A stretch of 42,118 nt of DNA from Terriglobia bacterium (GCA_036274645.1 DASUFH010000138.1:1-42118), one strand, 5' to 3'. Shown: positions 5,952 through 29,430, numbered from the stretch's first letter. Translations and numbers: made by a program. The notes: generated by a model not told the origin, from the letters alone.

Positions 5952-6689
5952 TCAACGATCGTTTGGCGGCTTGAGACCAACCAGGATTTCAAACTGGTCG
6001 GGAGTTCCGCGCCGCTCATAGACGGTGAGGTTGTAGGATCGCAGCGTCTTGACCAGCGCGGCCGCGGCGGCGTTTCCGTCGTCGTGCGTACAGACAATGC
6101 CGTGTTGCGGAGGAACCAGGGCGCCGAAGTTGCTGACGGCGACGTTCCATCCGGCGGACCGGAGCATGCGGGTGAGATCCCGAGCGAATGGTCCGGCTTC
6201 AACGTCGTTGAGTTCGATGAGCGACGCGTGCGCGCTTGTAAATCGGCTCATGGCGGAGACGAGCGCTTGTTCCTGCTCGAGCGAGAGCATGCGTGGTGTG
6301 TGCGCCGAAGCGGCGGCCGCCGGCTGGCGGCCCAGCCGGTCCTCCATCTCCAGGCGCATGCGCCTTTCGCGTTCCAGCGAAATCGCGAGTTCCATGTTTT
6401 CCTTGCGGATTCTTTGCGTGTCGGCCGCGGATGACGCGGCTTCCGAGATGGCGCGCTGGGCGTCTTCGTTGGCGCGCGCGGCGCGCTCGTTTGCCGCCGC
6501 GGTCTGCTGGACAAACTCCAATTGCCGTTTTCTTGTTTCTGCCTCCGCGGCGGAGGACCGCTGCCAGGAGAGAAAAACAACGAACAACCCGGCCGCCAGC
6601 ATGATCACAATGCTGGCGACATACGCCAGGTTGACCCAGAACAGGGTCTTGTCGACAGACGTCAGATCCGCCATGCGCTTGTTCGGCAC
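5952..6689 (-). CDS. Hypothetical membrane-anchored coiled-coil protein
   Basis: One N-terminal TM helix (FWVNLAYVASIVIMLAAGLFVVFL), an Ala/Glu/Arg-rich coiled-coil stretch and a C-terminal globular part. Start is GTG 6689 or ATG 6674. No family recognised. Confidence 0.5.
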   Translation of the reverse strand: MPNKRMADLTSVDKTLFWVNLAYVASIVIMLAAGLFVVFLSWQRSSAAEAETRKRQLEFVQQTAAANERAARANEDAQRAISEAASSAADTQRIRKENMELAISLERERRMRLEMEDRLGRQPAAAASAHTPRMLSLEQEQALVSAMSRFTSAHASLIELNDVEAGPFARDLTRMLRSAGWNVAVSNFGALVPPQHGIVCTHDDGNAAAAALVKTLRSYNLTVYERRGTPDQFEILVGLKPPNDR

Positions 6690-6776
6690 GGAATTATATG
6701 CGAGGGCCGGGAGGTCCGCCCGCCTCCGGCAAGAAATCTCGCCTGTTTGGACCGGCCGCTTCGCCGGCGGCGGTCT

Positions 6777-8237
6777 CTATCGGCCGCGATTGCCGCGCGC
6801 GCCTCGCAGGCCACCCCGTCCGGCATTGGCGCCGGAAAGCGCGCCGACGAGGACCGCCTGTACGGTGTGTTGCAGGACCGCCGTCCGAAACTCGGGCAGA
6901 TCCTCTTCATTCGCGGCAACCAGTTCGAGCGTCATCGCGCCCATCTCGTCAAAGGACTGTTGCCCCCACCACACCTGTTGTGGCGGATTCCGAGGATTGT
7001 TGGGATTGTCCACGGAGTTGTCGTACTCGATCTCCACTTCCAGGCGTGTCCCTTTGGGAAGCCGGATGGGCTCGGTGTATGTATAGCGCTCCTGCCAGTT
7101 GAAGTCCCACTTTGGAACCGAAGCCAGCACGCGCGTGGCGCGACCGGGCAGCGTGGCTCGCAAGGTCATGTGCGTGGCCAGATAGTGCGCGTGCGCGCCC
7201 ATCGAGATCACGTCGACATCCACCGGAACGGTAAAGGTGTCGCGGATGGCGAAGTCCTTTACCCCTGGAGCAAGATTGATGCCGGCCAGCGCGCCAAACA
7301 GCGGCGGCATCTGCACCGCCGAGAGTGTTTTTACCGGAGGTTTGTCCGCGAAGTAAAAGGCCACCGTCGCCTGCTCGCGCTCGACTTTGCCGGTCGGATG
7401 AAAATGCATCTGAAGCACCAGGTCGGTTCCCGCGGCCAGCGGACGAGCCAGACCGTCCGGCAGCGGATGAGCGATAGCGCCTACGGCCCATCCGCCGAGC
7501 CCTCCCCAGAGATTCTGTGAGGAGGTGTCCTCGTTGGGCGACGCGTTTGCGCGGGTCAGCAGGGCTTCCAGACCGCGACCGCCCAGGAAAGACATGCCAC
7601 TGAAGCCGGACTCCTTTTCCTGCGATTGGAGGCGAATGGCTTCACCGGTCTGATCGAGGAAGAACAGCGCGTGGTGCGACACCCGGGCCGAGGGACGGAA
7701 ATCGATCGCGCGCACCCACTTGGTTTCCTTGAGATTCAGCTTGATGGCGAAGTTGCGGAAAACATCGGGCCCTGACGCGGGGACTTCGAATGGCCGCTCC
7801 ATCCGGACAACAAGATCGGGCGTACCCAGACGCCATCCGTCGGTGTACTGCGGAGCGGCAGGGGCTTTCGCGAGGTCGCCGGAGGGCATGCCGTCATCCA
7901 CCCATGCGCGGATCAGGCGGATCTCGTTGTCGTTCAATCCCCGCTCGTCGCGAAAATGCCCCATCTCGGACGCGCCATGCCATGGCGGCATGTATCGCCG
8001 CTCGGTGACCGCGGCGATGGTCTTGCCATGCCGCTTCACTTCGTCGTAGTTCATGAGCGTGAAGGGAACCGCTTCACCCGTATGGTGACAGGTCGTGCAG
8101 TTCTTGTAGACGATCGGCGCGATGTGTTCGCTGAACGTGACCGTGCCGGCCGCCGCCTGCGTCGATGACAGGCTGCCTGCTGCGCCAACGGCGAGCAGGG
8201 AAGCGCCAACAAGGAATCCGACGACGGGTTTTCTCAT
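6777..8237 (-). CDS. Secreted c-type heme domain fused to a PHM/DBH-like type II copper monooxygenase fold
   Basis: ATG 8237 with GGGAGGA upstream and a signal peptide. CTTCH heme c motif in an F..HI.PI....C..CH...PF.L..Y context. Candidate Cu ligand motifs SHHALFF, LVLQMHFHP, GAHAHYL and SFDEMGAM. The track start at 8351 overlaps the upstream gene. Confidence 0.7.
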   Translation of the reverse strand: MRKPVVGFLVGASLLAVGAAGSLSSTQAAAGTVTFSEHIAPIVYKNCTTCHHTGEAVPFTLMNYDEVKRHGKTIAAVTERRYMPPWHGASEMGHFRDERGLNDNEIRLIRAWVDDGMPSGDLAKAPAAPQYTDGWRLGTPDLVVRMERPFEVPASGPDVFRNFAIKLNLKETKWVRAIDFRPSARVSHHALFFLDQTGEAIRLQSQEKESGFSGMSFLGGRGLEALLTRANASPNEDTSSQNLWGGLGGWAVGAIAHPLPDGLARPLAAGTDLVLQMHFHPTGKVEREQATVAFYFADKPPVKTLSAVQMPPLFGALAGINLAPGVKDFAIRDTFTVPVDVDVISMGAHAHYLATHMTLRATLPGRATRVLASVPKWDFNWQERYTYTEPIRLPKGTRLEVEIEYDNSVDNPNNPRNPPQQVWWGQQSFDEMGAMTLELVAANEEDLPEFRTAVLQHTVQAVLVGALSGANAGRGGLRGARGNRGR

Positions 8238-8256
8238 GCCATCCTCCCGGGAAACT

Positions 8257-8844
8257 TTAAAGACCTTCGATGTAACAGCCGACCGCCGGAGTTCGCGGCT
8301 CCGGAACATTCCTGTGCGCAGCCAACGCCGCCAGGGCGTCGCGCAGATCATGCGTGTGGGCCTCGCGGCGTTGCTGGCCCAGTTCGATCCACAGATCGTT
8401 GATGCGGCCGCGATAAAGCAGACTTCCCGATCGGGAAAACACCGCCGCTTCCGGTGTGACCGTGGCGCCCGCAGCGGTAGCGAGCTCGTGTCGGGTGTCC
8501 ATGACTGCCGGAAGTGTATACCCGAATTCCTGCAAGTGATTCTTTAGGTCTTCGGTGGTAAGTCCAGACTCAGGAAAAACAAGATAGCAATCCACGCCAT
8601 TCGAGCGGAAATCGTCGCAAATGCGCATGATCTCGGGCGCGTACTGCCGGGAAATCGGGCATGTCGTCCCCAGAAAGAAGAGGGCCGTGAACTCCGTTTT
8701 CGCTTTCTCCAGGCTGCCATGCAGGACGCCATCGATGTCGCGCAGGGGATGGGCGTTGCCGGATCCGGGCCAGAAAAGAAACACCGCGGCGCTGATCGCC
8801 ACAGCTGCGATGAGGGAGAAAACGATGGGTTTCATTCCGTGCAT
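8257..8844 (-). CDS. Thioredoxin-fold (TlpA/redoxin-like) secreted protein with a CxxS motif
   Basis: Signal/anchor MKPIVFSLIAAVAISAAVFLFW. FFLGTTCPISRQYAPEI is a redoxin-type motif with Ser replacing the second Cys. Its stop lies 19 nt upstream of the next gene on the same strand. Confidence 0.7.
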   Translation of the reverse strand: MHGMKPIVFSLIAAVAISAAVFLFWPGSGNAHPLRDIDGVLHGSLEKAKTEFTALFFLGTTCPISRQYAPEIMRICDDFRSNGVDCYLVFPESGLTTEDLKNHLQEFGYTLPAVMDTRHELATAAGATVTPEAAVFSRSGSLLYRGRINDLWIELGQQRREAHTHDLRDALAALAAHRNVPEPRTPAVGCYIEGL

Positions 8845-8994
8845 TAGACAGTCCCCCCACGTTCAGGTTTATTGCGTAGCGCCAGCATAGCTTATTCCGG
8901 CGCGGCCGGTATCTGCGAAATCCCGGCAGACGTCCTTGTCCGGAGCCATTCCTTCGATTACGATTCCGCCATCTTACAGAAAGAGACAACGCGT

Positions 8995-10944
8995 ATGAGA
9001 GGACGAATCGTTCGGATGAGCGCGATCGCCCCGGTTCTGGTGGCCGCGATTGCGTGTTTTCTGGCATGGGCAGAGGATTCCATTCCCGCGAACACCGAGT
9101 GGCGATATTGGGGAGGCGATGCGAGAACCACTCATTACGCGCCGCTCGATCAGATCGGACCGGCCAATGTGTCCCGGTTGCAGATTGTATGGCGCTGGAA
9201 CACGGCAAGCCTGGGCGGCCGCGCGGACTCGAACTGGGAGGTCACGCCGCTGATGGTTGGCGGTATTCTCTATTTCACTGCGGGGCAGCAGCGCCATGCC
9301 GTGGCGGCCAATGCCGCGACTGGCGAGACGCTATGGACGTACGTTCTCGACGAGGGCGCGCGCGCGGCGCGTCCCGTGCGTTCGAACAATCGCGGCCTGG
9401 CGTACTGGTCCGACGGCCGCAACGACTCGCGTGTCCTGTTCATTACGCCGGGCTACCAACTTGTCGCTCTCGAGGCCAGGACCGGCAAGCCCATCCCGAC
9501 GTTCGGCGCCAGTGGCGTGGTGGACCTGACGGTGGGGCTCGATCGGGACGTCGTGCGGCCGAGCGAGATCGGCGCTACGTCGCCGGCCATGATCGTTGGC
9601 GATGTGGCGATCGTGGGCGCCGCGTTGCTTTCCGGCACGACTCCGCGGTCCATGACCAACGTGCCCGGATATGTGCGGGGCTATGACGTTCGTACCGGTG
9701 AACGGCTCTGGACATTTCACACGATTCCGCGTCCGGGCGAGTTCGGTCATGAGACCTGGGAGGAAGGTTCCTGGGAATATACAGGCAACACGGCCGTCTG
9801 GGCCCCGATGAGCGCGGACCTGGAACTCGGGTATGTCTACCTTCCCGTCGAGTCGCCGACGGGCGATTACTACGGCGGGCACCGCCCCGGCGACAATCTG
9901 TTCGCCGACACGCTGGTGTGTCTGGACGCGAAGACCGGAAGGCGTGTGTGGCATTACCAACTCCTCCATCACGACATCTGGGACTACGACATCGCATCGG
10001 CGCCGACACTGCTGGATGTGACGATTGACGGAAAGAGAGTCAAGGCCGTTGCGCAGCCAACCAAGCAGGCCTTTTTGTTCGCGTTTGACCGGGTCACCGG
10101 AAAGCCCCTCTGGCCGATTGAAGAACGGCCGGTTCCCCAGTCGGATGCGCCGATGGAAAAGACCTCCCCGACGCAGCCCTTTCCCACCAGGCCGGCGCCG
10201 TTCGATCGGCAGGGCGTGACGTTAGATGACCTGATGGATCTCACGCCCGAGCTGAAAGCGGAGGCGGCGCGGATCGCGTCCGAGTTCAAATTGGGGCCGT
10301 TGTTTACACCCCCCATCGTCGAGGGCGCGGGCGGCAAGCGGGCCGCGCTTCAGGTGCCGCACACCCAGGGGGGCGCGAACTGGCAGGGCGCCGGCGCCGA
10401 TCCGGAAACAGGAATCGTCTACGTGCCATCCGTGACCAACTGGTACGGGAATGCGCTCCGTCGCAATACGCAGCGGTCCGACATGGCTTTTGTCGGACGG
10501 AGTGTCGCGCCGGAGCGGCCGATGGGTCTTCCGCTGATCAAAGGGCCCTGGGGACGGATCACCGCGATCGATCTCAATACGGGCGATCACCTTTGGATGG
10601 TTCCCAACGGAAAGGTCCCCGAGTACATTCGGAACCATCCGGCGCTTCAGGGCGTCGATCTGAGCGGACTGGGTAACCCCGAACGCGCCCCCCTGCTCGT
10701 GACGAGGACCCTGCTTTTTGCCGGAGACGGAAGCGGGATGTTTTCCTCCGGACCCAATGGGGGTGGTCCAATCTTCCGGGCGCTCGACAAGAGAACTGGA
10801 GCGCTCATTCATGAGATGCGGTTGCCCGGGAACGAGACTGGTTTACCAATGACTTACATGCTGGATGGGCGTCAGTACATTGTAGTCGCCGTTGGCAATC
10901 GAAACGCCGCCGCAGAGCTGGTGGCCCTGGCGCTGCCGAAGTAA
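8995..10944 (+). CDS. PQQ-dependent dehydrogenase (8-bladed beta-propeller quinoprotein, glucose/quinate-like, no Cys-Cys ring seen)
   Basis: Signal-like MRGRIVRMSAIAPVLVAAIACFLAWA. WRYWGGDARTTHYAPLDQI..NVSRLQIVWRW, TPLMVGGILYF..AANAATGETLW and repeated W-containing propeller motifs. Confidence 0.8.
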   Translation: MRGRIVRMSAIAPVLVAAIACFLAWAEDSIPANTEWRYWGGDARTTHYAPLDQIGPANVSRLQIVWRWNTASLGGRADSNWEVTPLMVGGILYFTAGQQRHAVAANAATGETLWTYVLDEGARAARPVRSNNRGLAYWSDGRNDSRVLFITPGYQLVALEARTGKPIPTFGASGVVDLTVGLDRDVVRPSEIGATSPAMIVGDVAIVGAALLSGTTPRSMTNVPGYVRGYDVRTGERLWTFHTIPRPGEFGHETWEEGSWEYTGNTAVWAPMSADLELGYVYLPVESPTGDYYGGHRPGDNLFADTLVCLDAKTGRRVWHYQLLHHDIWDYDIASAPTLLDVTIDGKRVKAVAQPTKQAFLFAFDRVTGKPLWPIEERPVPQSDAPMEKTSPTQPFPTRPAPFDRQGVTLDDLMDLTPELKAEAARIASEFKLGPLFTPPIVEGAGGKRAALQVPHTQGGANWQGAGADPETGIVYVPSVTNWYGNALRRNTQRSDMAFVGRSVAPERPMGLPLIKGPWGRITAIDLNTGDHLWMVPNGKVPEYIRNHPALQGVDLSGLGNPERAPLLVTRTLLFAGDGSGMFSSGPNGGGPIFRALDKRTGALIHEMRLPGNETGLPMTYMLDGRQYIVVAVGNRNAAAELVALALPK

Positions 10945-14666: not shown

Positions 14667-15530
14667 ATGGGCGTCTCAAACGAAATGGCGCGGGCGTTCA
14701 TTGAATCGCATCCTGACGAGGCCGCCGCGGAAATGGAGCGTATGCCGCTGGTGGACGCGGCCGCGCTGCTCGAGGATCTTCCACATGAACTGGCTTCCGG
14801 GATAACGGCCCGGCTGTCGACCTTGTTTGCGGCAGAATGTCTGCGGCGGCTTCCGGCGGGAGTTGCGGGAGAGTTGCTGGCTGAAATCCCCCGCGATTCC
14901 GGGGCTGCGTTGCTCCGTCGGCTGCCTGCCGACGATCGTGACCGCCTGCTGACGGTCATGCCGCGCAACGCGTCAAGCGCGCTGGCGCGGCTGACGCGCT
15001 TTCCGGAGGGAACGGCGGGCGCGCTGATGGATCCCGAGGTGCTGGCCGTGCCTGTCGATACTCCGGTTTATTCCGCCCTGGACCAGGTGCGGGTTTCGGG
15101 CGCGCGCGTTCTCTATTACGTCTATGTGGTGGACCGGAACAATCATCTGGTGGGGGTGGTGAACCTCCGCGAGTTGATGTCCGCCGGCGCCAACAGCGCG
15201 CTGGGCGATGTGATGCGTCCACACGTGGAACGGATTTCCGTATACGCGGATCGTGTTGGCGCGCTGGCGCACCCGGCGTGGCGGACGTTCTATGCGCTGC
15301 CGGTTGTGGATGACACCGGCCTGCTGGTCGGCGTGCTGCGGCACAAGCGTTTGTACGCTTCAGAAGACGAAGCCGCGGCGGACTCGCCCAACCTGCTGGC
15401 GGTCGGCATATCGCTCGGAGAGATGTACTGGTCGGTCGCCGCGCAGCTGCTCGAGAGTCTCTGGCCCGCCGCGCGCCGAACGGCGGAGGAGCCAGAGGGG
15501 ATGGAGACGGAGATAGAAAATGAGCGATAA
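14667..15530 (+). CDS. Soluble MgtE-like cytosolic sensor module (MgtE N domain plus CBS pair, no TM domain)
   Basis: 287 aa, collinear with the first ~260 aa of the downstream MgtE. GTAGALMDPEVLAVP.. and VVDRNNHLVGVVNLRELM are CBS-like. Starts 2 nt after the upstream stop and overlaps mgtE by 11 nt. Confidence 0.7.
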   Translation: MGVSNEMARAFIESHPDEAAAEMERMPLVDAAALLEDLPHELASGITARLSTLFAAECLRRLPAGVAGELLAEIPRDSGAALLRRLPADDRDRLLTVMPRNASSALARLTRFPEGTAGALMDPEVLAVPVDTPVYSALDQVRVSGARVLYYVYVVDRNNHLVGVVNLRELMSAGANSALGDVMRPHVERISVYADRVGALAHPAWRTFYALPVVDDTGLLVGVLRHKRLYASEDEAAADSPNLLAVGISLGEMYWSVAAQLLESLWPAARRTAEEPEGMETEIENER

Positions 15531-16827
15531 CGCGGACCTTGCCGCCGGCCGCCTGGCCATCCGGTTCATGGAGCAGTTTCCAGAAGAAGCGTCTCTGCGC
15601 CTGGAGAGCGCGGATCCCGCCGAGGCGCAGGCCATGCTGACGCGAATTCCGCCGGTCAACGCCGCGCGGGTGATTGAGCGAATGACGGTGGACGCCGGAG
15701 CTCGCGTGATCGAAGAGATGGAGCTGGATTCGCTGAAACCGGTCCTCGCCGCGATCGATCCGGCGTGGGCGGCCACGCTGCTGACGCGGCTGGACGAGCC
15801 GGCTCGGGAACAACGGCTGAAGTTGTTGCATCCCGCCGCCGCAGCGGAGTTGAAGTCGCTGATGAGCTACGAGCCCGGTTCCGCCGGGAGTCTGATGGAT
15901 CCCAAGGTCCTTGCGTTTCGTCCGGAGGCGACCGCGGGGGACGCGCTGGACCGCCTGCGCCGCAGCGGCATCCGAAGGATTCAGGACGTCTTCCTGGTTA
16001 ATGGCTCCGGGGAACTGGCCGGTTCCGTCACGCTGCAGGACATCGCGGTTGCGCCCAGCGACGAACGGCTGAAGGATCTTGTGCGGGCTGTAACCCCGCG
16101 CGTCTACGCGACGGCGAGCCGCGAGGAAATCGGCGAGACGATGGAAACATCACGCCTCGCCACGCTGGCGGTGGTTGACGCCGAAGAGCGCCTCGTGGGC
16201 GCCATCCGCCAGGACGCGCTGTTTGTGGCGGCCCAGGAAGAGGCGACCATCGACATCCAGACTATGGTTGGCGTCAGCCGCCAGGAGCGCGCCTTGTCCA
16301 CGCCGACCTTCGCAGTGAAGAAGCGCCTGCCCTGGCTCAGCATCAATCTGGGCACAGCGTTTCTGGCGGCTGCCGTCGTCGGCATTTTCGAGAACACCAT
16401 CGCTCAGGTGACCGCGCTGGCCGTGCTCCTGCCGGTCGTGGCCGGTCAGTCCGGGAATACCGGCGCGCAGGCGCTGGCCGTAACAATGCGTGGCCTGGCG
16501 CTGCGGGAGATCCGCGCGCGACAGTGGTTGCGCATCGCGCTCAAGGAAATCAGCGTCGGTTTTCTGAACGGTCTCGCTATTGCGGCGCTTACGTCCGTGG
16601 CTGTTTTCGTCTGGAGCGGCTCTTCCGGACTGGCGGTCGTTATCGGAACATCAATGGTGATCTCCATGGTTGCCGCCGGATTCGCGGGCGCGGCCATTCC
16701 CATGCTGCTGACCGCTCTTGGCCAGGATCCCGCTCAATCGTCATCGATCATCCTGACGACCATCACGGATGTGACAGGCTTCTTCAGTTTTCTCGGAATC
16801 GCCACATTGATGCTGCGCATGCTCTAG
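15520..16827 (+). CDS. mgtE: Magnesium transporter MgtE (full length)
   Basis: 435 aa with N domain, CBS pair and C-terminal 5-TM domain. Motifs PVVAGQSGNTGAQALAVTMRGLAL and ILTTITDVTGFFSFLGIA. Confidence 0.9.
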   Translation: MSDNADLAAGRLAIRFMEQFPEEASLRLESADPAEAQAMLTRIPPVNAARVIERMTVDAGARVIEEMELDSLKPVLAAIDPAWAATLLTRLDEPAREQRLKLLHPAAAAELKSLMSYEPGSAGSLMDPKVLAFRPEATAGDALDRLRRSGIRRIQDVFLVNGSGELAGSVTLQDIAVAPSDERLKDLVRAVTPRVYATASREEIGETMETSRLATLAVVDAEERLVGAIRQDALFVAAQEEATIDIQTMVGVSRQERALSTPTFAVKKRLPWLSINLGTAFLAAAVVGIFENTIAQVTALAVLLPVVAGQSGNTGAQALAVTMRGLALREIRARQWLRIALKEISVGFLNGLAIAALTSVAVFVWSGSSGLAVVIGTSMVISMVAAGFAGAAIPMLLTALGQDPAQSSSIILTTITDVTGFFSFLGIATLMLRML

Positions 16828-19883: not shown

Positions 19884-19996
19884 CCACCGGAACCCGCGTT
19901 CTTCGAGGTTCAGATCATCGGATCGCAGGTCGCGCTGAGGCCCATTCATCCATTGAACCACCGGAACCCGCGTTCTTCGAGGTTCAGATCATCGGA
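19884..19996. repeat. 39-nt perfect direct repeat, two copies (19884-19922 and 19958-19996)
   Basis: CCACCGGAACCCGCGTTCTTCGAGGTTCAGATCATCGGA occurs twice, 74 nt apart. The second copy covers the stop codon and last codons of the DUF3365-like gene. Confidence 0.9.
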
Positions 19997-20589
19997 ATAC
20001 GCACCACGACGCCGCCCATGGTTTCGCCCATCTTGAAATCGTGACGCGGGCTGTCCTCATGGTCGTTGTGGCAGTTGATGCAGGCTTCCGCGACCGCCAC
20101 GTCGGGATAGACGGCCGTGAAGTATTTCTTGCCGCCCAGGGTTTCTTCCGAATAGTAGGGTTCCTGCTTGGCGACAACGGCTTCCAGTCCGGCCTTCTCG
20201 ACATCCGTCTTGGGCATGTTCTGCTTATTCACCGCCCACAGGGACAGCAGCGCGTAGTTGAAGTCCTTGGTCTTTTCGGAAACCATTTCCGATCCCATCC
20301 GGAACATCTGGGCCGGCAGCGGGAGAGCCTTGGCGTCCTTCCAGTGCTCGTTGGCGCGGATCACGTTTTCCTGCTGAAGCCGGTTGACGACCTGTTTGGT
20401 GTAGATGACCCGATCGGATTCCATGACAGCGTGCAGGGAGTCGGCCATCATCTTTGGCGTGATTCCGGAAGACGCTGCCGATTCTCCTTTGCCACAGGCG
20501 GCGAGACCGGTTGCGATTGCGCAAACCAGCGCCGCGAAGGCGATTGCTCGGATTCCGTGTGCGGGCGTTTTCATCAGCGTAACTTTCAT
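19984..20589 (-). CDS. DUF3365/Tll0287-like c-type heme lipoprotein
   Basis: Lipobox GLAAC and a single CINCH heme c motif near the C-terminus. AAGGAGAG RBS abuts the stop codon of the upstream cytochrome gene. Confidence 0.7.
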   Translation of the reverse strand: MKVTLMKTPAHGIRAIAFAALVCAIATGLAACGKGESAASSGITPKMMADSLHAVMESDRVIYTKQVVNRLQQENVIRANEHWKDAKALPLPAQMFRMGSEMVSEKTKDFNYALLSLWAVNKQNMPKTDVEKAGLEAVVAKQEPYYSEETLGGKKYFTAVYPDVAVAEACINCHNDHEDSPRHDFKMGETMGGVVVRIPMI

Positions 20590-20602: not shown

Positions 20603-21925
20603 TTATTTTGAACGCGGGTTAGCTGCGGCCTTCCGTAGAGCCATATCGATGCTCTCGATGTGGCGCGCTGGCCGGCCGCGGAAGTTGGTTTCGATCAGGA
20701 CCGGGTCGGCCAGGGCATCGATGGAAAAGCCCAGACCGTGGCAGTTGAGGCAGACGCTGCGAATCATCTTTTCGTTGGGTCTCAGGTTGGCGTTCTGGTT
20801 GTGGTCGACACGAACGGCCGAAGACCCGCCCGTTTCTCCTGTAACGCGGGGAAGGTGGCAGGTGGCGCAACCGACCCCGCTGCCGTCCGGGGCGCGTCCT
20901 TCCGACTCAGCGCGCCAGAGGGCGAAGTGCGGCGAGTCTTTGTAGGCCAGGGAGTGCCGGTCGGCGTGGCAGTCCAGGCATCCATCCGCCGCGGCGCGGC
21001 GGGTATCGAAAGTGTGGGGCGAGTGGCACGAGCCGCAATCCAGCGTTCGCTCTTTCGCGCTGGAGTTCATCGGAAGGCGCGCCAGGGATGGCGACATCGG
21101 TCCCAGACCGGCCGCAAGTCGCATGCCGTGTCTTCCCCCGGAGAAACCCTGCGATTCGCTCTTGTGGCAGGTCTCGCAGGACTGGTATCCCGGATGATCG
21201 GTCCAGGCCTTGTTCGCCGAGCCACTCGCGACGACATGGCAAGCGGAGCAGTTCACCCCGCTTTGGGCATGCGCAGTGGATGCCCATTCTTCGACCAGAC
21301 GGGGATCCGCCACCGTCCCGTGAGGGTCGTCACGCCGGCTTGCGTCCACTGGCGTTGCGGAGGTCCGGCGGGGCCGTCGAGTTACCAGCGCAACGCTGAG
21401 AACTTCCGGTTCGCTTTGATGCTTCAGGAGAAAATCGGTATACAGCGCTCGATTGTCATGAAAGTTGTGGCAGCCTGCGGACGCGCAGGAGTCGAAGGCC
21501 ATGTTCTGATGACTGGGTCTTTCCCTGGCAATGTCGGAGTGACAGTAGAAACAGACATCCGCGGGCAGCGTGACTCCCATCGTTCCCGTGATCTCGGGAC
21601 GGTGTTCGACATGGCAGGTCACACACGATGTCGCGTCCAGCCTGGCAATCCGCTCCGCATTGCGGGGATCGGTGAACTTGCTTTTGGGGTGCGAGTCTTC
21701 TCCTTCCGCCAGATCGGTCTGGTGGCACTTCATGCAGGAATCCGAAATCGCGCCCTGAAACGGGACGTGACAGCTGTCGCATGCCAGCTCGATCTGGTAA
21801 TGTCCGGAGGAGGTCTGCCCGGGCAGAAACATGCCGCGATCCTTCGACTGCAGTTTGATTGCGATTCCGGCCACCGCCAGAATCGACGCCATCGACCATC
21901 CGAGCCAGACAAGCCGTCTGCGCAT
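20603..21925 (-). CDS. Membrane-anchored multiheme cytochrome c (10 CXXCH plus 1 CX4CH)
   Basis: Start MRRRLVWLGWSMASILAVAGIAI (ATG 21925, or GTG 21928), 5 nt after the upstream stop. Motifs CDSCH, CMKCH, CVTCH, CFYCH, CASAGCH, CSACH, CETCH, CGSCH, CLDCH, CATCH, CLNCH. The track ORF to 22765 is an out-of-frame overlap with the upstream gene. Confidence 0.85.
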   Translation of the reverse strand: MRRRLVWLGWSMASILAVAGIAIKLQSKDRGMFLPGQTSSGHYQIELACDSCHVPFQGAISDSCMKCHQTDLAEGEDSHPKSKFTDPRNAERIARLDATSCVTCHVEHRPEITGTMGVTLPADVCFYCHSDIARERPSHQNMAFDSCASAGCHNFHDNRALYTDFLLKHQSEPEVLSVALVTRRPRRTSATPVDASRRDDPHGTVADPRLVEEWASTAHAQSGVNCSACHVVASGSANKAWTDHPGYQSCETCHKSESQGFSGGRHGMRLAAGLGPMSPSLARLPMNSSAKERTLDCGSCHSPHTFDTRRAAADGCLDCHADRHSLAYKDSPHFALWRAESEGRAPDGSGVGCATCHLPRVTGETGGSSAVRVDHNQNANLRPNEKMIRSVCLNCHGLGFSIDALADPVLIETNFRGRPARHIESIDMALRKAAANPRSK

Positions 21926-21930
21926 CACGT

Positions 21931-23943
21931 TCAGAAGTAGTACGCGGAAAGAATGTGAAAGGCCACCAGCGCCGGCAGCGGCCACACCAGGACGACATGT
22001 CCCCAGACCACACATTTTCGTAAGGCCATGGCGCGCGTTGTCGCGAGTCGATGGTCGGCGGAGACAACGCCGCCGGCGGCCGCGCCCGCGAGATTGGCCA
22101 AAGCAAAGACGGTCATGAGCGCCGCGTTGAGGTTGGCGCCGAACCGGAGCCCGGTATGGGCGACGAGGACGATCAGCGCGCCGACGCCGAGCAGGGCATG
22201 GACGGCGCGCCACAGTCCAAAGTCCCCGCGAGTAAAGGAGCGGAGTCGTTTGCGCGCCGACAGCAGCATGCCGAGGCCCGTCAACCCAAGAAGGGAGAAT
22301 CCGGTGACCTGCTTCCAGACGCTGTTGCGCCAGATCACATCGTAGGGAAATGTTTGTACCGATGCGGCGTAGGGAAGAGAAGGGGCGAAAAATATCGCCG
22401 CGACGAGAAGCAAGGCCGCGCCGGCCGCTACCGCCAGACCACGCGCGCCGCGGGCCGGTCCCGTTGTGGCCGCAGGCTGTCCGGCGAGCTCCGCGAGCAA
22501 TGGCTTGCAGGTTCCGCACAGCGTGGATGCGCCGGTCGCTGCGGCCATCGCTTCCACGGTTGCGCAGCCGGCGGTCTGGGCCGCGGCGAGCATTCCGCGT
22601 GAGACGTTCATGCAGTTGCAGACGGTGGCCGCGGCCGGCCACTGTCCAACGGGTTGCCTCCGCGCCGGCCAGAGGGTTCCCTGCCGCATGAAACGGCGCG
22701 CCTGCCAGGTCCATACCCGCCGCTCGACCCGGACGGCATCCTGTACTTCGCCCGCCTCGGGCCACGCGCCAAGCGCGCTGGCGCCGACGAGGCGGTTGTC
22801 ACGGACGACAATGCGACGGTAGACGCCATCGGATTCCCAGCAGTGGGTGACAGCCGGCTGGTTGTAGTCTCCAAAGACCGAAACGTCGAGACCAAGGACT
22901 TTCAAGCGCGTGGACATATCCGCGCCCCGAAACTCCGCGCCGCCACCCAGCAGCCGGTCCACGAGGACCTCGGCCATCTGGTATGCCGGCGCGGCCAGGC
23001 CATAGGTGACGCCGCGGTGGTTCGCGCATTCGCCAATCGCGTAGATGCTGGGATCGGAGGTTTCCAGTCTGTCGTTGATCTGTATGCCGCCGGGAATGGC
23101 GATGGCCAGTTCACAGGACTCCGCCAGCTCCTGCCGCGGACGAATGCCCGCCGCAACGACCACCAGGTCCACGCTGATGGGCTCCTGATCCTTGTCGGCG
23201 AAGTGCAGCGATCGGCGCCGGCCGTCTGCGGCTATCCGGTTGACGCGCACGTTGACATGAACGCGCAGGCCCATTTCTTCGATCTGCCTGCGGGCCAGCT
23301 CTCCCGCTCGTGGATCCAGCTGGACGGGCAGCAGCTGCGGCGCGAATTCGACGACATGGCATTCCAGGCCCAGTCCCTGCAGCGCCCGCGCGGCTTCCAG
23401 TCCGAGAAGTCCACCGCCGATGACCGCCGCGGACGTGGCGTTTCGGGCGCGCGTCCGGATTTCGTTCAGATCGCCGATCGTGCGGTAGACAAAAACGTCG
23501 GAAAGGTCCGCGCCCTCCACGGGGGGAACAAACGGACGCGAACCCGTGGCGAACACCAGCTTGTCGTACGCCAGCCAGCGGCCGGATTCCGTGTGCGCGA
23601 TGCGTGTTTCGCGGTCGATCGCGATGACGCGGTCGCCCGTGCGCAGCGTTATGCCATTGGCGGAGTACCAGGCCCGGCTCTGGAGACACAGTTCCTCTTC
23701 GGGCCGGCCGGCCAGAAAATCAGTTAAATGAACACGGTCGTAGGCGGGACGCGGCTCTTCGCCGACAACAACGACTTCGTAACGCGCCATTCCCTGGCGC
23801 GCGGCCAGCTTCTCGCAGAGCTTGTAGCTGGCCATGCCGTTGCCGACAATGACCAGCCTCTCTCTGGGAGGAGCCGCCCCCTCCGACGGGCGTGAGGCGG
23901 CGTTCCTGTGACCAGCCGCCAGAACTTCCGTTGCCGCGTCCAC
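21931..23943 (-). CDS. Fusion protein: NirB-type FAD/NAD(P)H pyridine-nucleotide-disulfide oxidoreductase, BFD-like [2Fe-2S] domain and a 5-TM bis-His (putative di-heme b) module
   Basis: RLVIVGNGMASYKL and AAVIGGGLLGLEAA Rossmann motifs. IYAIGECA. C-N-C..x31..C-G-T-C BFD-like cluster motif. Five C-terminal TM helices, with H-X13-H on TM3 (AVHALLGVGALIVLVAHTG) and TM5 (WGHVVLVWPLPALVAFHIL). Start is uncertain: GTG 23943 lies 2 nt after the globin stop, while ATG 24021 would overlap the globin by 76 nt. Confidence 0.8.
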   Translation of the reverse strand: MDAATEVLAAGHRNAASRPSEGAAPPRERLVIVGNGMASYKLCEKLAARQGMARYEVVVVGEEPRPAYDRVHLTDFLAGRPEEELCLQSRAWYSANGITLRTGDRVIAIDRETRIAHTESGRWLAYDKLVFATGSRPFVPPVEGADLSDVFVYRTIGDLNEIRTRARNATSAAVIGGGLLGLEAARALQGLGLECHVVEFAPQLLPVQLDPRAGELARRQIEEMGLRVHVNVRVNRIAADGRRRSLHFADKDQEPISVDLVVVAAGIRPRQELAESCELAIAIPGGIQINDRLETSDPSIYAIGECANHRGVTYGLAAPAYQMAEVLVDRLLGGGAEFRGADMSTRLKVLGLDVSVFGDYNQPAVTHCWESDGVYRRIVVRDNRLVGASALGAWPEAGEVQDAVRVERRVWTWQARRFMRQGTLWPARRQPVGQWPAAATVCNCMNVSRGMLAAAQTAGCATVEAMAAATGASTLCGTCKPLLAELAGQPAATTGPARGARGLAVAAGAALLLVAAIFFAPSLPYAASVQTFPYDVIWRNSVWKQVTGFSLLGLTGLGMLLSARKRLRSFTRGDFGLWRAVHALLGVGALIVLVAHTGLRFGANLNAALMTVFALANLAGAAAGGVVSADHRLATTRAMALRKCVVWGHVVLVWPLPALVAFHILSAYYF

Positions 23944-23945
23944 GG

Positions 23946-24371
23946 CTACATTCGCGCGGCCATGGCGGAGCGCGCGCCTTCCTTCATGGTGGACGCGAGA
24001 ACAGTGTAGACGGCCACCCACGCTTCCTTTGTTTCCGGCGTGAACTCGTTTCCAAGCCCACGTTCCAGTGTCCAGAGAAGCGCCTCGGCGACAGTATCGT
24101 AGTGCCCGTCTTCCACTCCGTAGCCCTTGTGCCGCGCGCCGAGATCGCGCACGACGGGTACCAGCGCTTCGAGATTGTCGAGGCCCTTCACTGCGGCCGC
24201 CAGCATCTGCATCAGCTTCTTCTTCTGGTCGCTGAGATCTTCCTTGAACATTGGCCGTAGCTTCGGATCCAACGTGAAGAGCCGGGTGTAAAACACATCG
24301 GCGGCCTGATCGGCAATGGGCGCGACCATGGCGAATGTTGCCTGGACACGCTCTTTCTGCTTCGTCGTCAT
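23946..24371 (-). CDS. Single-domain globin (sensor/protoglobin-lineage-like)
   Basis: 141 aa from MTTKQKERVQATFAMVAPIADQAADVFYTRLF..DP.LRPMF, then LGARHKGYGV (proximal His region). GGAAGGAG RBS about 10 nt before ATG 24371. Confidence 0.8.
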   Translation of the reverse strand: MTTKQKERVQATFAMVAPIADQAADVFYTRLFTLDPKLRPMFKEDLSDQKKKLMQMLAAAVKGLDNLEALVPVVRDLGARHKGYGVEDGHYDTVAEALLWTLERGLGNEFTPETKEAWVAVYTVLASTMKEGARSAMAARM

Positions 24372-24629
24372 CAAAAAAACGCTCCTTCCGTTATGTCCGT
24401 CGACGAGCGTCATGCAATGACGGGACCTTTGCAGTTTCTTTAGCGCATGAGGTTTTGAAATCGCTAAGCCCACTGCAGTTGTGCGGGCAGCCGGGCGTTC
24501 TCAGTCGAGATGACGTCGCGCAAGGAGAGGCACAGTTCTGTTTTGAACGCGTTTGTTTTCCGACAATCTTGTTTCGGATGGAAGGGGAGCGGTGGACCTG
24601 TTGTTCCGGGATCGAAACGAAGCCGGCGA

Positions 24630-25586
24630 TCAGCTTTCCGATTGCGAGGAAGCCAGGGAGCGCAGACGCCGGGTGGCCTGTTCCACGGCGCGCCGGGCCT
24701 GGGTCAGCGATTCTTCCGCCGCATCCGATTCGGCCGTCATGCGGATGGCGTGAGCCGTGGCCTCGCGGGCCTGTGTTTTCGCCTGTTTCAGGCGTTCCTC
24801 AGCGTCGCGCTTCCGGTCTTCGAATCGTTGCGCGTCCGATTCGGCCTCTCGCGCGGCGGTTGCGGCATGTTCGGCTCTCGTTCGGGCCACGCTGAGCGCA
24901 CGCTCCGCCTCGGCCAGCCTGGCTTGCGCCTGGGCGATTTTGTCTGCGACGGGATTAAGAGGCGGTGGGGCGCCTGGTGGCGCGGCCTTCTCCGGAACGG
25001 CAGCGATGACGGCAGGCTTTCGCGCCGGCGTATCAGAAACGAGTGTGACGAGAAAATCGAATCCCGGGGCGTCGAGATCGCTCGTGAGGCGTCCCGGAGG
25101 AGGAGAATCCGAACGCGCCGATAACGCCTCGAGCGTGGCGACAATGCGGCGCATCGTTTCGGGCGCCGGGCTGTGGCCACTCTGCCGCAGAAGCGCATCG
25201 GCCGCCCGCGCAAGCTCGGCAATGGCTTCGCGGCGCGCTTCGAGGGGTTCGCGAATATCTCCGGTCTTTCCGCCCAACTGCGCCAGCTGCGCTTCACGCA
25301 ACCGTTGGCCCGATGTGAGCAGGTGGTCGAAGGACTGGCGTTTCCGCCAGTACAGTTGATTGACCGTCCATGCGGTCACCGGCGGTTTGGAGAGCGATTG
25401 AACCTGTCCGGCCTCGGTCTTGCGTCCTTCCCGTTTAAGCCGGCCTGCCAGAGCGTTCCGCGCTGCCGTGAAATCGGCCAACGGGAGTTGGAACAACTCG
25501 TCGATGCTTCGTTCAACTTCCGTTTCGAATGTGCCGCTCCGGGACGGGACCGGCTTCCGGTCAGGCATGAGCAAGGAGTCTGTCAC
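24630..25586 (-). CDS. Hypothetical protein, N-terminal globular domain plus Ala/Glu/Arg-rich coiled-coil tail
   Basis: 318 aa with GTG start 25586, preceded by GGGGAG located in the palindrome arm. No family recognised. Confidence 0.5.
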   Translation of the reverse strand: MTDSLLMPDRKPVPSRSGTFETEVERSIDELFQLPLADFTAARNALAGRLKREGRKTEAGQVQSLSKPPVTAWTVNQLYWRKRQSFDHLLTSGQRLREAQLAQLGGKTGDIREPLEARREAIAELARAADALLRQSGHSPAPETMRRIVATLEALSARSDSPPPGRLTSDLDAPGFDFLVTLVSDTPARKPAVIAAVPEKAAPPGAPPPLNPVADKIAQAQARLAEAERALSVARTRAEHAATAAREAESDAQRFEDRKRDAEERLKQAKTQAREATAHAIRMTAESDAAEESLTQARRAVEQATRRLRSLASSQSES

Positions 25587-25784: not shown

Positions 25785-25844
25785 CCTCCCCTCCGAGACG
25801 TCCGTAGAAATACGGTCTGGTTGCCGCCGGGAATCTTTGAGAAA

Positions 25845-27233
25845 ATGCTTCGCCCTATGGTTAAGGGATCGTGTCGGTTACGGTTCAATTCAGGCGTTCT
25901 TTCTGTGGCGTTCTGTCTGTTGGTCGGCGGACACGTGGCCGCGGCATTGGCGCCGGCGGCGTCTCAGGGAGTGACGTTATTGGATGAGACCCCGGTTATG
26001 CTGCCCGCTGCAGGAACGATGACGGAGCGCCCCTTCTTTTCATCGCGCCGGCACCCCGCCATCAACTACGATCTGCCGCCGTCCGATGCGGTGAGCGCCC
26101 TTGCCCAGAAAGTGTCAAGCGGTGAGACCCGGCTCCGGTTCGACCCCACCAGCGGTTATTTGATGTCCGTGCTGGAAGCGCTGAAGGTTCCAGTGGAATC
26201 CCAGGCGGTGGTCTTTTCAAAGACCAGTCTGCAGTCGCACTACATCAGTCCGGCCAATCCCCGCGCTCTGTTCTTTACGGACGAAGTGGCGGTGGGTTTT
26301 ATCCGCGGCGCTCCGCTGCTGGAGATCAGCGCGCTGGACCCGCGGCAGGGCGTCGTGTTCTTCGTCATCGACCAGAAGGACGCGGCTCGACCGCTGATTG
26401 TCCGGAGCGACTCCTGTCTTTCCTGTCACGAGAGCCGGAACTCCATGGGCATTCCCGGCATGCTTGCGCGCTCCATGGCCGTGGGCGATGGGGGACAGAT
26501 CAAGCTGCAGTTTGGAACCTTCAATTCCGACCATCGCAGTCCTTTTGAGGAACGCTGGGGCGGATGGTTCATCACCGGGCTGGCGGGAACGGCCGCCCAC
26601 ATGGGCAACACGATGGTTGCGGCCGACGCCACCGGCCGGCCGGCCGGGCAGCCGAAGCCCCTCGCATCGCTTGATGGCGCCTTTGCCCCGGATGGGTATC
26701 CGGCTCGGTATAGTGATGTCGGCGCGGTCATGACGCTCAATCATCAGATCGGCATGACGAACCTGATGATCCGTATGGGATGGGAATCCCGTATCGCGGT
26801 CCATCAGGGACAGAAGAACCCGGCGGATCGCGGCGCAGGCGAACGGCTCATTGAGGCCGACGCCCGCGAACTTGCCGATTACATGCTGTTTGTGGATGAG
26901 CCGGCGCTGCCCGGAACGTTTGAGTCCACCTCCGGATTCAAAACCGCATTTGCCGCGGCGGGTCCCCGCGACAGTCAGGGACGAAGCTTACGGCAGCTCG
27001 ATCTCGGAAAGCGGCTCATGCGGTATCCGCTGAGCTACATGATCTATTCCCGAGCCTTTGACGGTTTGCCCGACGTTGCCCGTGAAGCGGTCTACTCCCG
27101 TCTGTGGACCATCCTCTCCGGACAGGACAAGTCGACGCGGTACTCCCGCCTTACGGCCGCCGACCGCTCCGCGATCGTCGGTATCCTTTTGGAAACGAAA
27201 CCCGGTCTGCCGAGTTATTACAAGGCTTTGTAG
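25845..27233 (+). CDS. Secreted hypothetical protein with a single CXXCH heme c motif
   Basis: Signal-like LRFNSGVLSVAFCLLVGGHVAAALA and the motif DSCLSCHESRN. Start is uncertain (TTG 25821, ATG 25845 or ATG 25857). No family name recognised. Confidence 0.6.
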   Translation: MLRPMVKGSCRLRFNSGVLSVAFCLLVGGHVAAALAPAASQGVTLLDETPVMLPAAGTMTERPFFSSRRHPAINYDLPPSDAVSALAQKVSSGETRLRFDPTSGYLMSVLEALKVPVESQAVVFSKTSLQSHYISPANPRALFFTDEVAVGFIRGAPLLEISALDPRQGVVFFVIDQKDAARPLIVRSDSCLSCHESRNSMGIPGMLARSMAVGDGGQIKLQFGTFNSDHRSPFEERWGGWFITGLAGTAAHMGNTMVAADATGRPAGQPKPLASLDGAFAPDGYPARYSDVGAVMTLNHQIGMTNLMIRMGWESRIAVHQGQKNPADRGAGERLIEADARELADYMLFVDEPALPGTFESTSGFKTAFAAAGPRDSQGRSLRQLDLGKRLMRYPLSYMIYSRAFDGLPDVAREAVYSRLWTILSGQDKSTRYSRLTAADRSAIVGILLETKPGLPSYYKAL

Positions 27234-27403: not shown

Positions 27404-27721
27404 ATGAGAGTGCGACCGTTACATGATCGTGTCTTGATCAAGAGAGTGGAGGAGCAGGAGACCGTGCGGGGCGGCATCATTATTCCGGACACCGCCAAGG
27501 AAAAGCCCCAGGAAGGCGAGGTTATCGCCGCGGGCACCGGCAAGCGTCTGGAGAGCGGCCAGGTCATTCCCCTGGAAGTGAAGGCCGGCGACCGCGTGCT
27601 CTTCGGCAAGTACTCCGGGACGGAAATCAAACTGGACGGCGAAGAACTTCTGATTCTGCGGGAAGACGAAATCCTGGGAATCCTGTCGGCGAACACTGCG
27701 AGCGCGAAATCCAAGAAGTAG
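27404..27721 (+). CDS. groES: Co-chaperonin GroES
   Basis: [42 protein letters not shown].. is the canonical GroES sequence. Confidence 0.97.
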
Positions 27722-27724
27722 TAG

Positions 27725-29365
<1,641 letters not shown>

Positions 29366-29430
29366 TTTCCATTTCTCTCCCATCCCGTGGGAGAGCGTCC
29401 GAAATGGCCGGGTCAGGCTGCCGGATCGTT

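Follow-up and report, generated by a model that had tools for sequence, protein, structure and literature searches.

A NirB-type reductase joined to a five-helix, putative di-haem membrane module: a candidate electron exporter with a multihaem cytochrome c partner

Introduction

What does a NirB-type reductase do when its siroheme half has been replaced by membrane helices? The question is raised by a single gene in a 42,118-nt stretch of DNA from a Terriglobia bacterium (GCA_036274645.1 DASUFH010000138.1:1-42118); "the window" below means this whole stretch. The gene product, here called the fusion, joins an FAD/NAD(P)H reductase and a BFD-type [2Fe-2S] domain to a C-terminal transmembrane (TM) module of five helices with two His-X13-His pairs. 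Our best overall explanation, to which we assign a probability of roughly 0.6, is that the fusion works as a transmembrane electron exporter in one polypeptide, a quinone-independent conduit from NAD(P)H to the periplasm. An earlier, sequence-only reading of the window had described the protein domain by domain. The main addition made here is the operon and its nitrate context, which bear most directly on the physiological role.

Results

The gene starts at GTG 23943 on the minus strand and stops at the TGA 21931-21933; the open reading frame (ORF) is real, and the coordinates first given for it, 21931-23943, are correct. The start codon lies 2 nt past the TAG stop of an upstream globin gene. 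A longer start at GTG 24021 was rejected, as it would run into that gene. The features discussed are collected in Table 1.

Table 1 Positions of the fusion gene, its domains, its operon partners and a variant locus
Feature	Position	Strand	Basis and remarks
NirB-type reductase + BFD [2Fe-2S] + five-helix di-His/di-His membrane fusion gene	21931..23943	-	670 aa; ORF and start codon
FAD/NAD(P)H reductase domain	22729..23859	-	residues 29-405; Pyr_redox_2, Pyr_redox, Rubredoxin_C
BFD-like [2Fe-2S] domain	22486..22626	-	residues 440-486; Fer2_BFD
Five-TM putative di-haem cytochrome b module	21934..22446	-	residues 500-670; AF2 helices
Single-domain globin	23946..24371	-	141 aa from ATG 24371; Pfam Globin E=3e-18; upstream of fusion
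Membrane-anchored periplasmic undecahaem cytochrome c	20603..21925	-	440 aa; Cytochrom_c3_2 and related Pfam families; starts 5 nt after fusion stop
Tll0287-like (DUF3365/sCache_haem) periplasmic haem c protein	19984..20589	-	201 aa; Pfam E=1.8e-20; lipoprotein-type signal
FNR-type variant, then orthologous multihaem cytochrome (locus L091)	6001-9042 and 9236-10789

The N-terminal part of the fusion is matched in Pfam by Pyr_redox_2 (residues 29-323, E=2.8e-55), Pyr_redox, Rubredoxin_C (344-405) and Fer2_BFD (E=1e-7). Against the NCBIfam NirB profile TIGR02374, residues 30-487 align with positions 1-465 of 794 at E=6e-141, about 100 orders of magnitude ahead of any other reductase family. At 471 bits the match stays under the 578-bit cutoff because the siroheme half of the profile (positions 466-794) has no counterpart in the fusion. 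BLASTP against the canonical 809-aa NirB of a related locus aligned residues 27-493 with NirB 3-483 at 36% identity, with no alignment beyond residue 493. No NIR_SIR match was found in the fusion with Pfam; the canonical NirB of locus L009 has both NIR_SIR_ferr and NIR_SIR. The description of the protein as a NirB whose siroheme half has been replaced is thus literally accurate, residues 1-487 being NirB-like by Pfam, TIGR02374 and BLASTP alike. Lacking the NIR_SIR_ferr/NIR_SIR siroheme-[4Fe-4S] half, the fusion cannot itself reduce nitrite.

A full-length AlphaFold2 (AF2) model was computed from a 100-sequence alignment (mean predicted local distance difference test score 92.6, predicted template modelling score 0.83). 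Foldseek comparison of this model with the PDB returned only matches of the ferredoxin-reductase type, all to the N-terminal half, the best being ferredoxin, rubredoxin and putidaredoxin reductases at E~1e-31. The BFD cysteines are C442 (codon 22618-20), C444 (22612-14), C476 (22516-18) and C479 (22507-09), in the pattern CxC..x31..CxxC. Their codons span 22507-22620, in agreement with the BFD motif that had been placed at 22486-22629. A profile of this region matches the Bfd structures 4e6k and 6e6r among PDB sequences.

The last ~170 residues, after the BFD domain, gave no Pfam match above threshold. In the AF2 model they form five long helices (residues 500-519, 536-564, 575-597, 605-629 and 636-669), and the same five recur when the TM module is modelled by itself. 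Helix 3 carries H582 (codon 22198-200) and H596 (22156-58); helix 5 carries H649 (21997-99) and H663 (21955-57). Thirteen residues separate the two histidines of each pair.

Conservation was assessed over 100 full-length representatives of 50%-identity clusters, whose identity to the window protein lies in the range 31-62% (mean column identity 36%). The columns invariant in all 100 include C442, C444, C476, C479, H582, H596, H649 and H663, so that H-X13-H is present on both helices in every homologue. These eight columns stay invariant once the FNR-type variants described below join the alignment. The spacer between CxC and CxxC is 31 residues long in 95 of the 100, the motifs of the NAD(P)H/FAD domain are nearly invariant, and the chain ends 7 residues past the last His in 94. 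W578-R579, directly ahead of H582 at the cytoplasmic interface, is near-invariant and could bind a haem propionate; T597 and a WPLP motif are likewise conserved in the module. The sequence-only reading had seen five hydrophobic helices at the C-terminus and His-X13-His on TM3 and TM5, and had suggested the invariance of the four His and four Cys among homologues as a check. The models and the alignment agree with it on all three.

The loops of the same 100 sequences differ strongly in charge. Loops TM2-3 and TM4-5 hold on average 3.7 and 3.9 Lys+Arg per sequence, loop TM1-2, which is net acidic, 1.25 and loop TM3-4 0.63. By the positive-inside rule this pattern gives the reductase and BFD domains a cytoplasmic location and the C-terminus a periplasmic one, which is the orientation first proposed from the basic loops. 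The arrangement puts the first His of each H-X13-H pair near the inner face and the second near the outer face. The C-terminal region, in short, is a confidently modelled five-helix bundle with a positive-inside topology, as expected of a membrane-embedded domain.

Could the hydrophobic tail be a mere membrane anchor, or an artefact of assembly or gene calling, with the histidines incidental? Some database entries are clear artefacts. P0084 (1020 aa) was considered as a natural fusion of TM module and cytochrome c that would prove the topology, and was rejected as a frameshift read-through because TM5 is garbled, the second His is missing and the chain runs into the cytochrome's own start and anchor. 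At L003 (6697-8681) the gene calls are split, probably by long-read indels: the fusion is represented there by a pair of overlapping ORFs (443 and 226 aa) and the cytochrome by pieces of 301 and 174 aa. Against this stands the breadth of the family in independent genomes and metagenomes. The same architecture occurs in more than 100 90%-identity clusters (630-700 aa, at least 95% coverage, 44-67% identity), from Verrucomicrobiota, Planctomycetota/Phycisphaerae and Poribacteria, which are named only "FAD-dependent oxidoreductase" or "nitrite reductase (NADH) large subunit". A profile search of 1.84 billion representatives gave 470 clusters (50% identity) at E<=1e-30; among the matches listed, all 150 reach the C-terminal end of the profile or come within a few positions of it. 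A scan of genomes for the fusion by its single protein returned two Verrucomicrobiota metagenome-assembled genomes (MAGs) only. An anchor alone would not keep four invariant His at fixed spacing, R579, T597 and the WPLP motif. We regard the anchor or artefact explanation as effectively refuted.

To place the module in a family, the last 186 residues of the window protein were scanned against Pfam. DUF4405 (PF14358) is the sole family with a detectable sequence relation to the module; it is matched at E<=0.05 by 16 of 73 homologues (best E=9.4e-6), and one homologue, P0122, carries a precomputed PF14358 match. A DUF4405 protein purified in a 2024 study showed haem b spectra, and the four central His of the family are arranged as in MsrQ and PepSY-like cytochromes (PMC11334425). 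Four central conserved His are also the feature that the module shares with DUF4405. The described DUF4405 proteins differ from it in having six TM helices, standing alone and occurring with ApbE flavinylation clusters, whereas the module has five, is fused to a NirB-type reductase and BFD domain, and occurs with a multihaem cytochrome c and nas genes. We describe the module as a putative divergent five-TM DUF4405-like cytochrome b, a distant relative of that family. No Ferric_reduct (NOX/YedZ) match was obtained with Pfam even at E<=10. A profile of the TM-module alignment run against all PDB sequences found only Bfd, through the BFD columns, and spurious transporters, with no NOX, STEAP or MsrQ chain.

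In the window the fusion is the second gene of four on the minus strand, in the order globin, fusion, undecahaem cytochrome c and Tll0287-like protein, with gaps of 2, 5 and 13 nt (Table 1). The globin matches the globin domain of Hmp, the flavohaemoglobin inducible by nitric oxide (NO), at E=1.3e-21 (NCBIfam). To see how constant this order is, we used a metagenome scan seeded on the alignment of the cytochrome, not of the fusion, which gave 80 loci searched by tblastn with reference proteins; the fractions that follow cover testable loci only. The TM module lies directly upstream of the cytochrome in 66/66 loci and the complete reductase-BFD-TM fusion is present in 41/41. A Tll0287-like gene directly follows the cytochrome in 65/65. 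A globin lies inside the module in 49/59, and an extra monohaem cytochrome c was found in 25/56 (~45%). Nine further annotated contexts, including Verrucomicrobiota, Planctomycetota, Poribacteria and Burkholderiales, carry fusion and cytochrome, and eight of them also the Tll0287-like gene. The order recurs in Planctomycetota (L004), Poribacteria (L005), a 10.3-Mb genome (L006), Limisphaerales (L007), GCA_016124445.1 (L008), two Verrucomicrobia MAGs (L001, L002) and a Burkholderiales MAG (L009).

The cytochrome has an N-terminal hydrophobic anchor and, in alignment A4, ten CxxCH motifs and one invariant Cx4CH, making 11 haem motifs. Its mean column identity across phyla is 53% (about 50-67% identity), above that of the fusion, and the motif HNQNxNLRPNEKM is invariant. 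At E<=1e-5 it has 3930 relatives, named only "cytochrome c3 family" or occasionally "NrfA", none of them characterised. The cytochrome resembles octahaem nitrite reductase and NrfA only weakly (E=2e-4 to 5e-3). Judged from the alignment, a catalytic site on the cytochrome is neither evident nor excluded.

The Tll0287-like proteins of the module (the L001-L090 set and the window, 77 in all) conserve CxxCH. In 61/77 the mature part contains no other Cys, and no distal Cys is conserved, so these proteins cannot ligate haem through Cys/His as Tll0287 does. The Met of an invariant PAQMFR motif is a possible distal ligand. A lipobox-like signal is present in 28/77. According to a 2026 preprint, stand-alone Cys/His members of this family resemble redox proteins, and NO is bound by those whose distal ligand is labile (bioRxiv 10.64898/2026.02.01.703092). 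By analogy, the absence of the Cys fits a role related to N-oxides and does not prove one.

It is possible, if doubtful, that the whole assembly is a new type of NO or nitrite reductase, driven by NAD(P)H without quinone, that reduces an N-oxide (NO, nitrite or hydroxylamine) in the periplasm as a safety or salvage branch of nitrate assimilation, with catalysis on the multihaem cytochrome or the Tll0287-like haem. Such a system would have five components: the globin, the fusion, the undecahaem cytochrome c, the Cys-less sCache_haem protein and sometimes the monohaem cytochrome c. It would span Verrucomicrobiota, Planctomycetota, Poribacteria, Burkholderiales, Methylomirabilota and Dadabacteria.

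The reductase half turned out to be exchangeable. In P0205 and P0262 two or three domains that bind cyclic nucleotide monophosphates (cNMP), a BFD domain and an FNR-type dehydrogenase (FAD_binding_6/NAD_binding_1) stand N-terminal to the same TM module. The FNR type is the NOX type of dehydrogenase. The TM module of P0205, encoded at L091, is 40% identical to that of the window, and an orthologous cytochrome (46% identity) lies downstream; no Tll0287-like gene was called downstream of that cytochrome. The cNMP domains hint at cyclic-nucleotide control of the electron exporter. A different departure is seen at L010 (7418-7990), on a Dadabacteria-type contig, where a 190-aa TM module with all four His stands alone directly upstream of the cytochrome, which is followed by the Tll0287-like gene. 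Taken together, the FNR-type fusion and the stand-alone module indicate that the constant core is cytochrome b plus multihaem cytochrome c, with a reductase that may be NirB-type, FNR-type or absent. The gene upstream of the module at L010 specifies a secreted protein of 455 aa that matches dCache_2 faintly. Other homologues are longer, 790-1260 aa, through an insert of ~100-600 residues between BFD and TM module that received no Pfam assignment; P0107, P0133, P0137, P0116, P0124, P0207, P0245, P0259 and P0267 bear such inserts.

The fixed genes are commonly found among genes of nitrate assimilation. Among the 47 loci that reach 9 kb or more, nas markers are present in 35 and absent from 12; the counts are 19 for ANTAR, 21 for NrtA, 7 for NasA and 9 for canonical siroheme NirB. 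L007 encodes an ANTAR regulator, NrtABC, cyanase, porin, fusion, cytochrome, Tll0287-like protein, globin and MFS transporter, with a molybdopterin nitrate reductase further on. L009 encodes NasA, CobA, ANTAR, fusion, cytochrome, Tll0287-like protein, cytochrome c, globin, NrtABC, canonical NirB and NirD. Six genes come after the module in L014 (11999-18866), a Verrucomicrobia-type nas cluster. Their products are a NarI-like membrane protein (Nitrate_red_gam), a 731-aa molybdopterin nitrate reductase without BFD, proteins of the 4Fe-4S dicluster, Rieske and cupin types, and a siroheme nitrite reductase of the NirA type. No NAD(P)H reductase other than the fusion was seen across this cluster.

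In an alternative reading electrons flow inward, from a periplasmic donor through the multihaem cytochrome or Tll0287-like protein and the haems to [2Fe-2S] and on to NasA/NirA or the globin, sparing NAD(P)H. The neighbouring NasA, Rieske and NirA-type genes need a one-electron donor, and by established redox potentials nitrate and nitrite reduction from haem or Fe-S at about -100 to -250 mV is downhill. The complete NAD(P)H/FAD domain, with its nearly invariant motifs, would be superfluous in such a scheme, however, and the module encodes no periplasmic substrate-oxidising enzyme. Nor were nas genes seen with the window copy or in the 12 marker-free loci. We consider inward flow very unlikely.

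Upstream of the globin, the leader (24372-24530, minus strand) is attenuator-like: its 5' CCUCUCCUU can pair with the GGAAGGAG ribosome-binding site, and a U7 run stands just before the ATG. An ANTAR-type leader at this place was considered and dropped, there being no Rfam match and a fold no better than that of shuffled sequences (z=-0.75). Three flanking ORFs of 318, 470 and 654 aa (24630-25586, minus; 25821-27233, plus; 27419-29383, minus) belong to no Pfam family; the first, directly upstream of the globin, is rich in Ala, Arg and Glu and looks helical. Two adjoining MgtE-related genes occupy 14667-16827 on the plus strand. The first (287 aa) has MgtE_N and CBS only, without the membrane domain, and the second (435 aa) is a complete MgtE.

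Discussion

We propose the following mechanism. NAD(P)H would reduce the FAD of the NirB-type reductase domain, and electrons would pass singly from FAD to the BFD-type [2Fe-2S] cluster. From there they would reach an inner haem b near the cytoplasmic face, with H582 (TM3) and H649 (TM5) as predicted ligands, and then an outer haem b near the periplasmic face, with H596 and H663. The outer haem would deliver them to the anchored undecahaem cytochrome c and onward to the Tll0287-like haem c, with or without the monohaem cytochrome c. The siroheme catalytic half of NirB would thus have been exchanged for a membrane wire, and the result would work in the manner of NOX/FRE or Fre-MsrQ-MsrP from unrelated parts. 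We consider this path from NAD(P)H to periplasmic haem c proteins probable; the architecture, its conservation, the topology, the gene order and the exchange of the reductase are shown by the data above, and haem binding, the outward direction, the independence from quinone and the terminal substrate are what we infer.

As for purpose, the siting in nas clusters and the usual Hmp-like globin make nitrogen-oxide handling the most likely role. The exporter would supply reducing power for nitrogen oxides formed in nitrate assimilation, under NasT-type ANTAR regulators. More tentatively, the terminal periplasmic acceptor might be NO, nitrite or hydroxylamine. In the cytoplasm, the reductase may in addition re-reduce the globin, by analogy with Flp (see below).

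Several observations weigh against this proposal. The window protein itself reaches DUF4405 with E=0.018 and 16.0 bits, under the Pfam gathering threshold of 26.7. The AF2 model is one without cofactors. Foldseek of the TM-only model against the PDB returned nothing significant, the best hits being generic helical bundles at E=0.18, with STEAP2 at E=0.83 (TM 0.34) and cytochrome b561 at E=2.1; the method is weak on helical bundles, so that a remote homology to Ferric_reduct/YedZ is possible. On the periplasmic side, the cytochrome alignment has no CxxCK motif and no obvious catalytic signature, and it offers 13 conserved non-motif His for 11 haems. The window copy has no nas genes within the ~10 kb scanned on each side. 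Canonical NirB lies near the module in L009 and eight other loci. Because the module occurs together with true NirBD, it cannot be read as a plain substitute for nitrite reductase. The idea that it replaces NirBD as a periplasmic assimilatory nitrite reductase is weakened by the canonical NirB(D) nearby, by the missing CxxCK and by the cytochrome's low similarity to octahaem nitrite reductase and NrfA. Finally, no reductase gene adjoins the stand-alone module of L010, whose electrons must then come from elsewhere, possibly from quinol, so that a quinone site is possible.

This last point leads to an alternative in which the module, like NarI, FdnI or CybB, is a di-haem cytochrome b that reacts with quinone. 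The protein would then act as an NAD(P)H:quinone oxidoreductase, or else as a quinol dehydrogenase that passes electrons to the multihaem cytochrome, the job done by CymA, NrfH or CbcL, with the fused reductase mainly serving cytoplasmic acceptors, namely the globin or, via Rieske, NasA/NirA. Besides the L010 arrangement, with its cytochrome and Tll0287-like gene in need of another electron source, three things speak for it. The window protein has a weak, sub-threshold match (E=0.099) to Ni_hydr_CYTB, a quinone-reactive family; a soluble protein resembling the N-terminal part of NirB, the 418-aa Flp, serves NasC and a globin; and in Verrucomicrobia-type loci the fusion is the sole NAD(P)H reductase seen beside NasA, Rieske and NirA-type genes. 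The Ni_hydr_CYTB match is insignificant, however, and neither a quinone-site motif nor membership of a quinone-reactive family could be shown. That reductase, [2Fe-2S] and cytochrome b form one chain in 41/41 loci, and that an FNR-type dehydrogenase is independently fused to the same module, argues for direct entry of NAD(P)H electrons into the haems. We therefore hold quinone reactivity to be unlikely and retain the direct export of NAD(P)H electrons as the better explanation.

The closest functional parallels are the NOX, DUOX, FRE and SpNOX enzymes, in which a single chain likewise combines a cytoplasmic NAD(P)H flavin dehydrogenase with bis-His pairs on TM3 and TM5, 13 residues apart. In NOX/FRE two stacked b haems carry electrons over the membrane (PMC5676040). 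The differences are several. The fusion has five TM helices in two AF2 models, NOX six. Its dehydrogenase is N-terminal, as it is in the FNR-type variant P0205, whereas that of NOX is C-terminal, and it belongs to the two-Rossmann NirB/ferredoxin-reductase (Pyr_redox_2) type rather than the FNR type. An extra [2Fe-2S] BFD relay stands between flavin and haem, and the putative acceptor is a dedicated multihaem cytochrome c in place of O2 or Fe(III). With no detectable homology to NOX/FRD in sequence or fold, the likeness is one of analogy and not of membership. The sequence-only reading had spoken of a NOX-like logic built from a different dehydrogenase in reversed order; read as an analogy, this gains support from the fixed undecahaem partner, the FNR-type variant and the relation to DUF4405.

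A second parallel is Fre-MsrQ-MsrP of E. coli, where an NAD(P)H flavin reductase, a haem b membrane protein and a periplasmic redox protein act in series (PMC5676040). Both systems would send cytoplasmic NAD(P)H electrons through a membrane cytochrome b to a dedicated periplasmic protein. Here, in contrast, reductase and cytochrome b share one chain, [2Fe-2S] is part of the relay, the partners are an undecahaem cytochrome c and a Tll0287-like protein instead of a molybdoenzyme, and the membrane domain is not FRD/YedZ by any test run.

With NirB/NasB the fusion shares a homologous FAD/NAD(P)H and BFD half (residues 27-493) and, often, residence in nas clusters. As the siroheme half is missing and true NirBD coexists with the fusion, the names "nitrite reductase (NADH) large subunit" are misannotations. 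The nearest characterised precedent is the Flp-Bjgb pair of the Bradyrhizobium narK-bjgb-flp-nasC cluster, in which Flp and the globin Bjgb take part in the detoxification of NO that arises in nitrate assimilation, and Flp is implicated in electron supply to NasC, under NasT control (PMC4724949). Flp (B. japonicum blr2808) is a soluble, FAD/NAD(P)H-binding protein of 418 aa for which no BFD domain, membrane part or cytochrome c partner is reported (PMC4724949). Compared by Flp's description, both systems place a flavoprotein resembling the N-terminal part of NirB beside a single-domain globin in a NasT/ANTAR nas cluster. The fusion, with 670 aa, adds the BFD and TM modules, whereas nothing in the Flp system crosses the membrane.

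In the searchable literature we found no description of a module of NirB reductase, cytochrome b and undecahaem cytochrome. The principle, export of electrons by an NAD(P)H dehydrogenase with di-haem b, is known from NOX/FRE and Fre-MsrQ-MsrP; the construction is different. The differences comprise the NirB reductase, the [2Fe-2S] relay, the five-TM DUF4405-like module, the reversed order, the multihaem partner and the residence in nas clusters.

Conclusions

The fusion appears to be a third construction of the NOX-type machine, in which a soluble enzyme was rewired and a membrane wire took the place of its catalytic half. It is no rarity, with at least 470 clusters at 50% identity in several phyla. 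The label "nitrite reductase (NADH) large subunit", as used for example at JGI, would inflate metagenome predictions of assimilatory and dissimilatory nitrite reduction. The fixed cytochrome and haem c Cache partners in NasT-controlled nas clusters point to an unstudied periplasmic branch of nitrate assimilation or of the defence against nitrosative stress.

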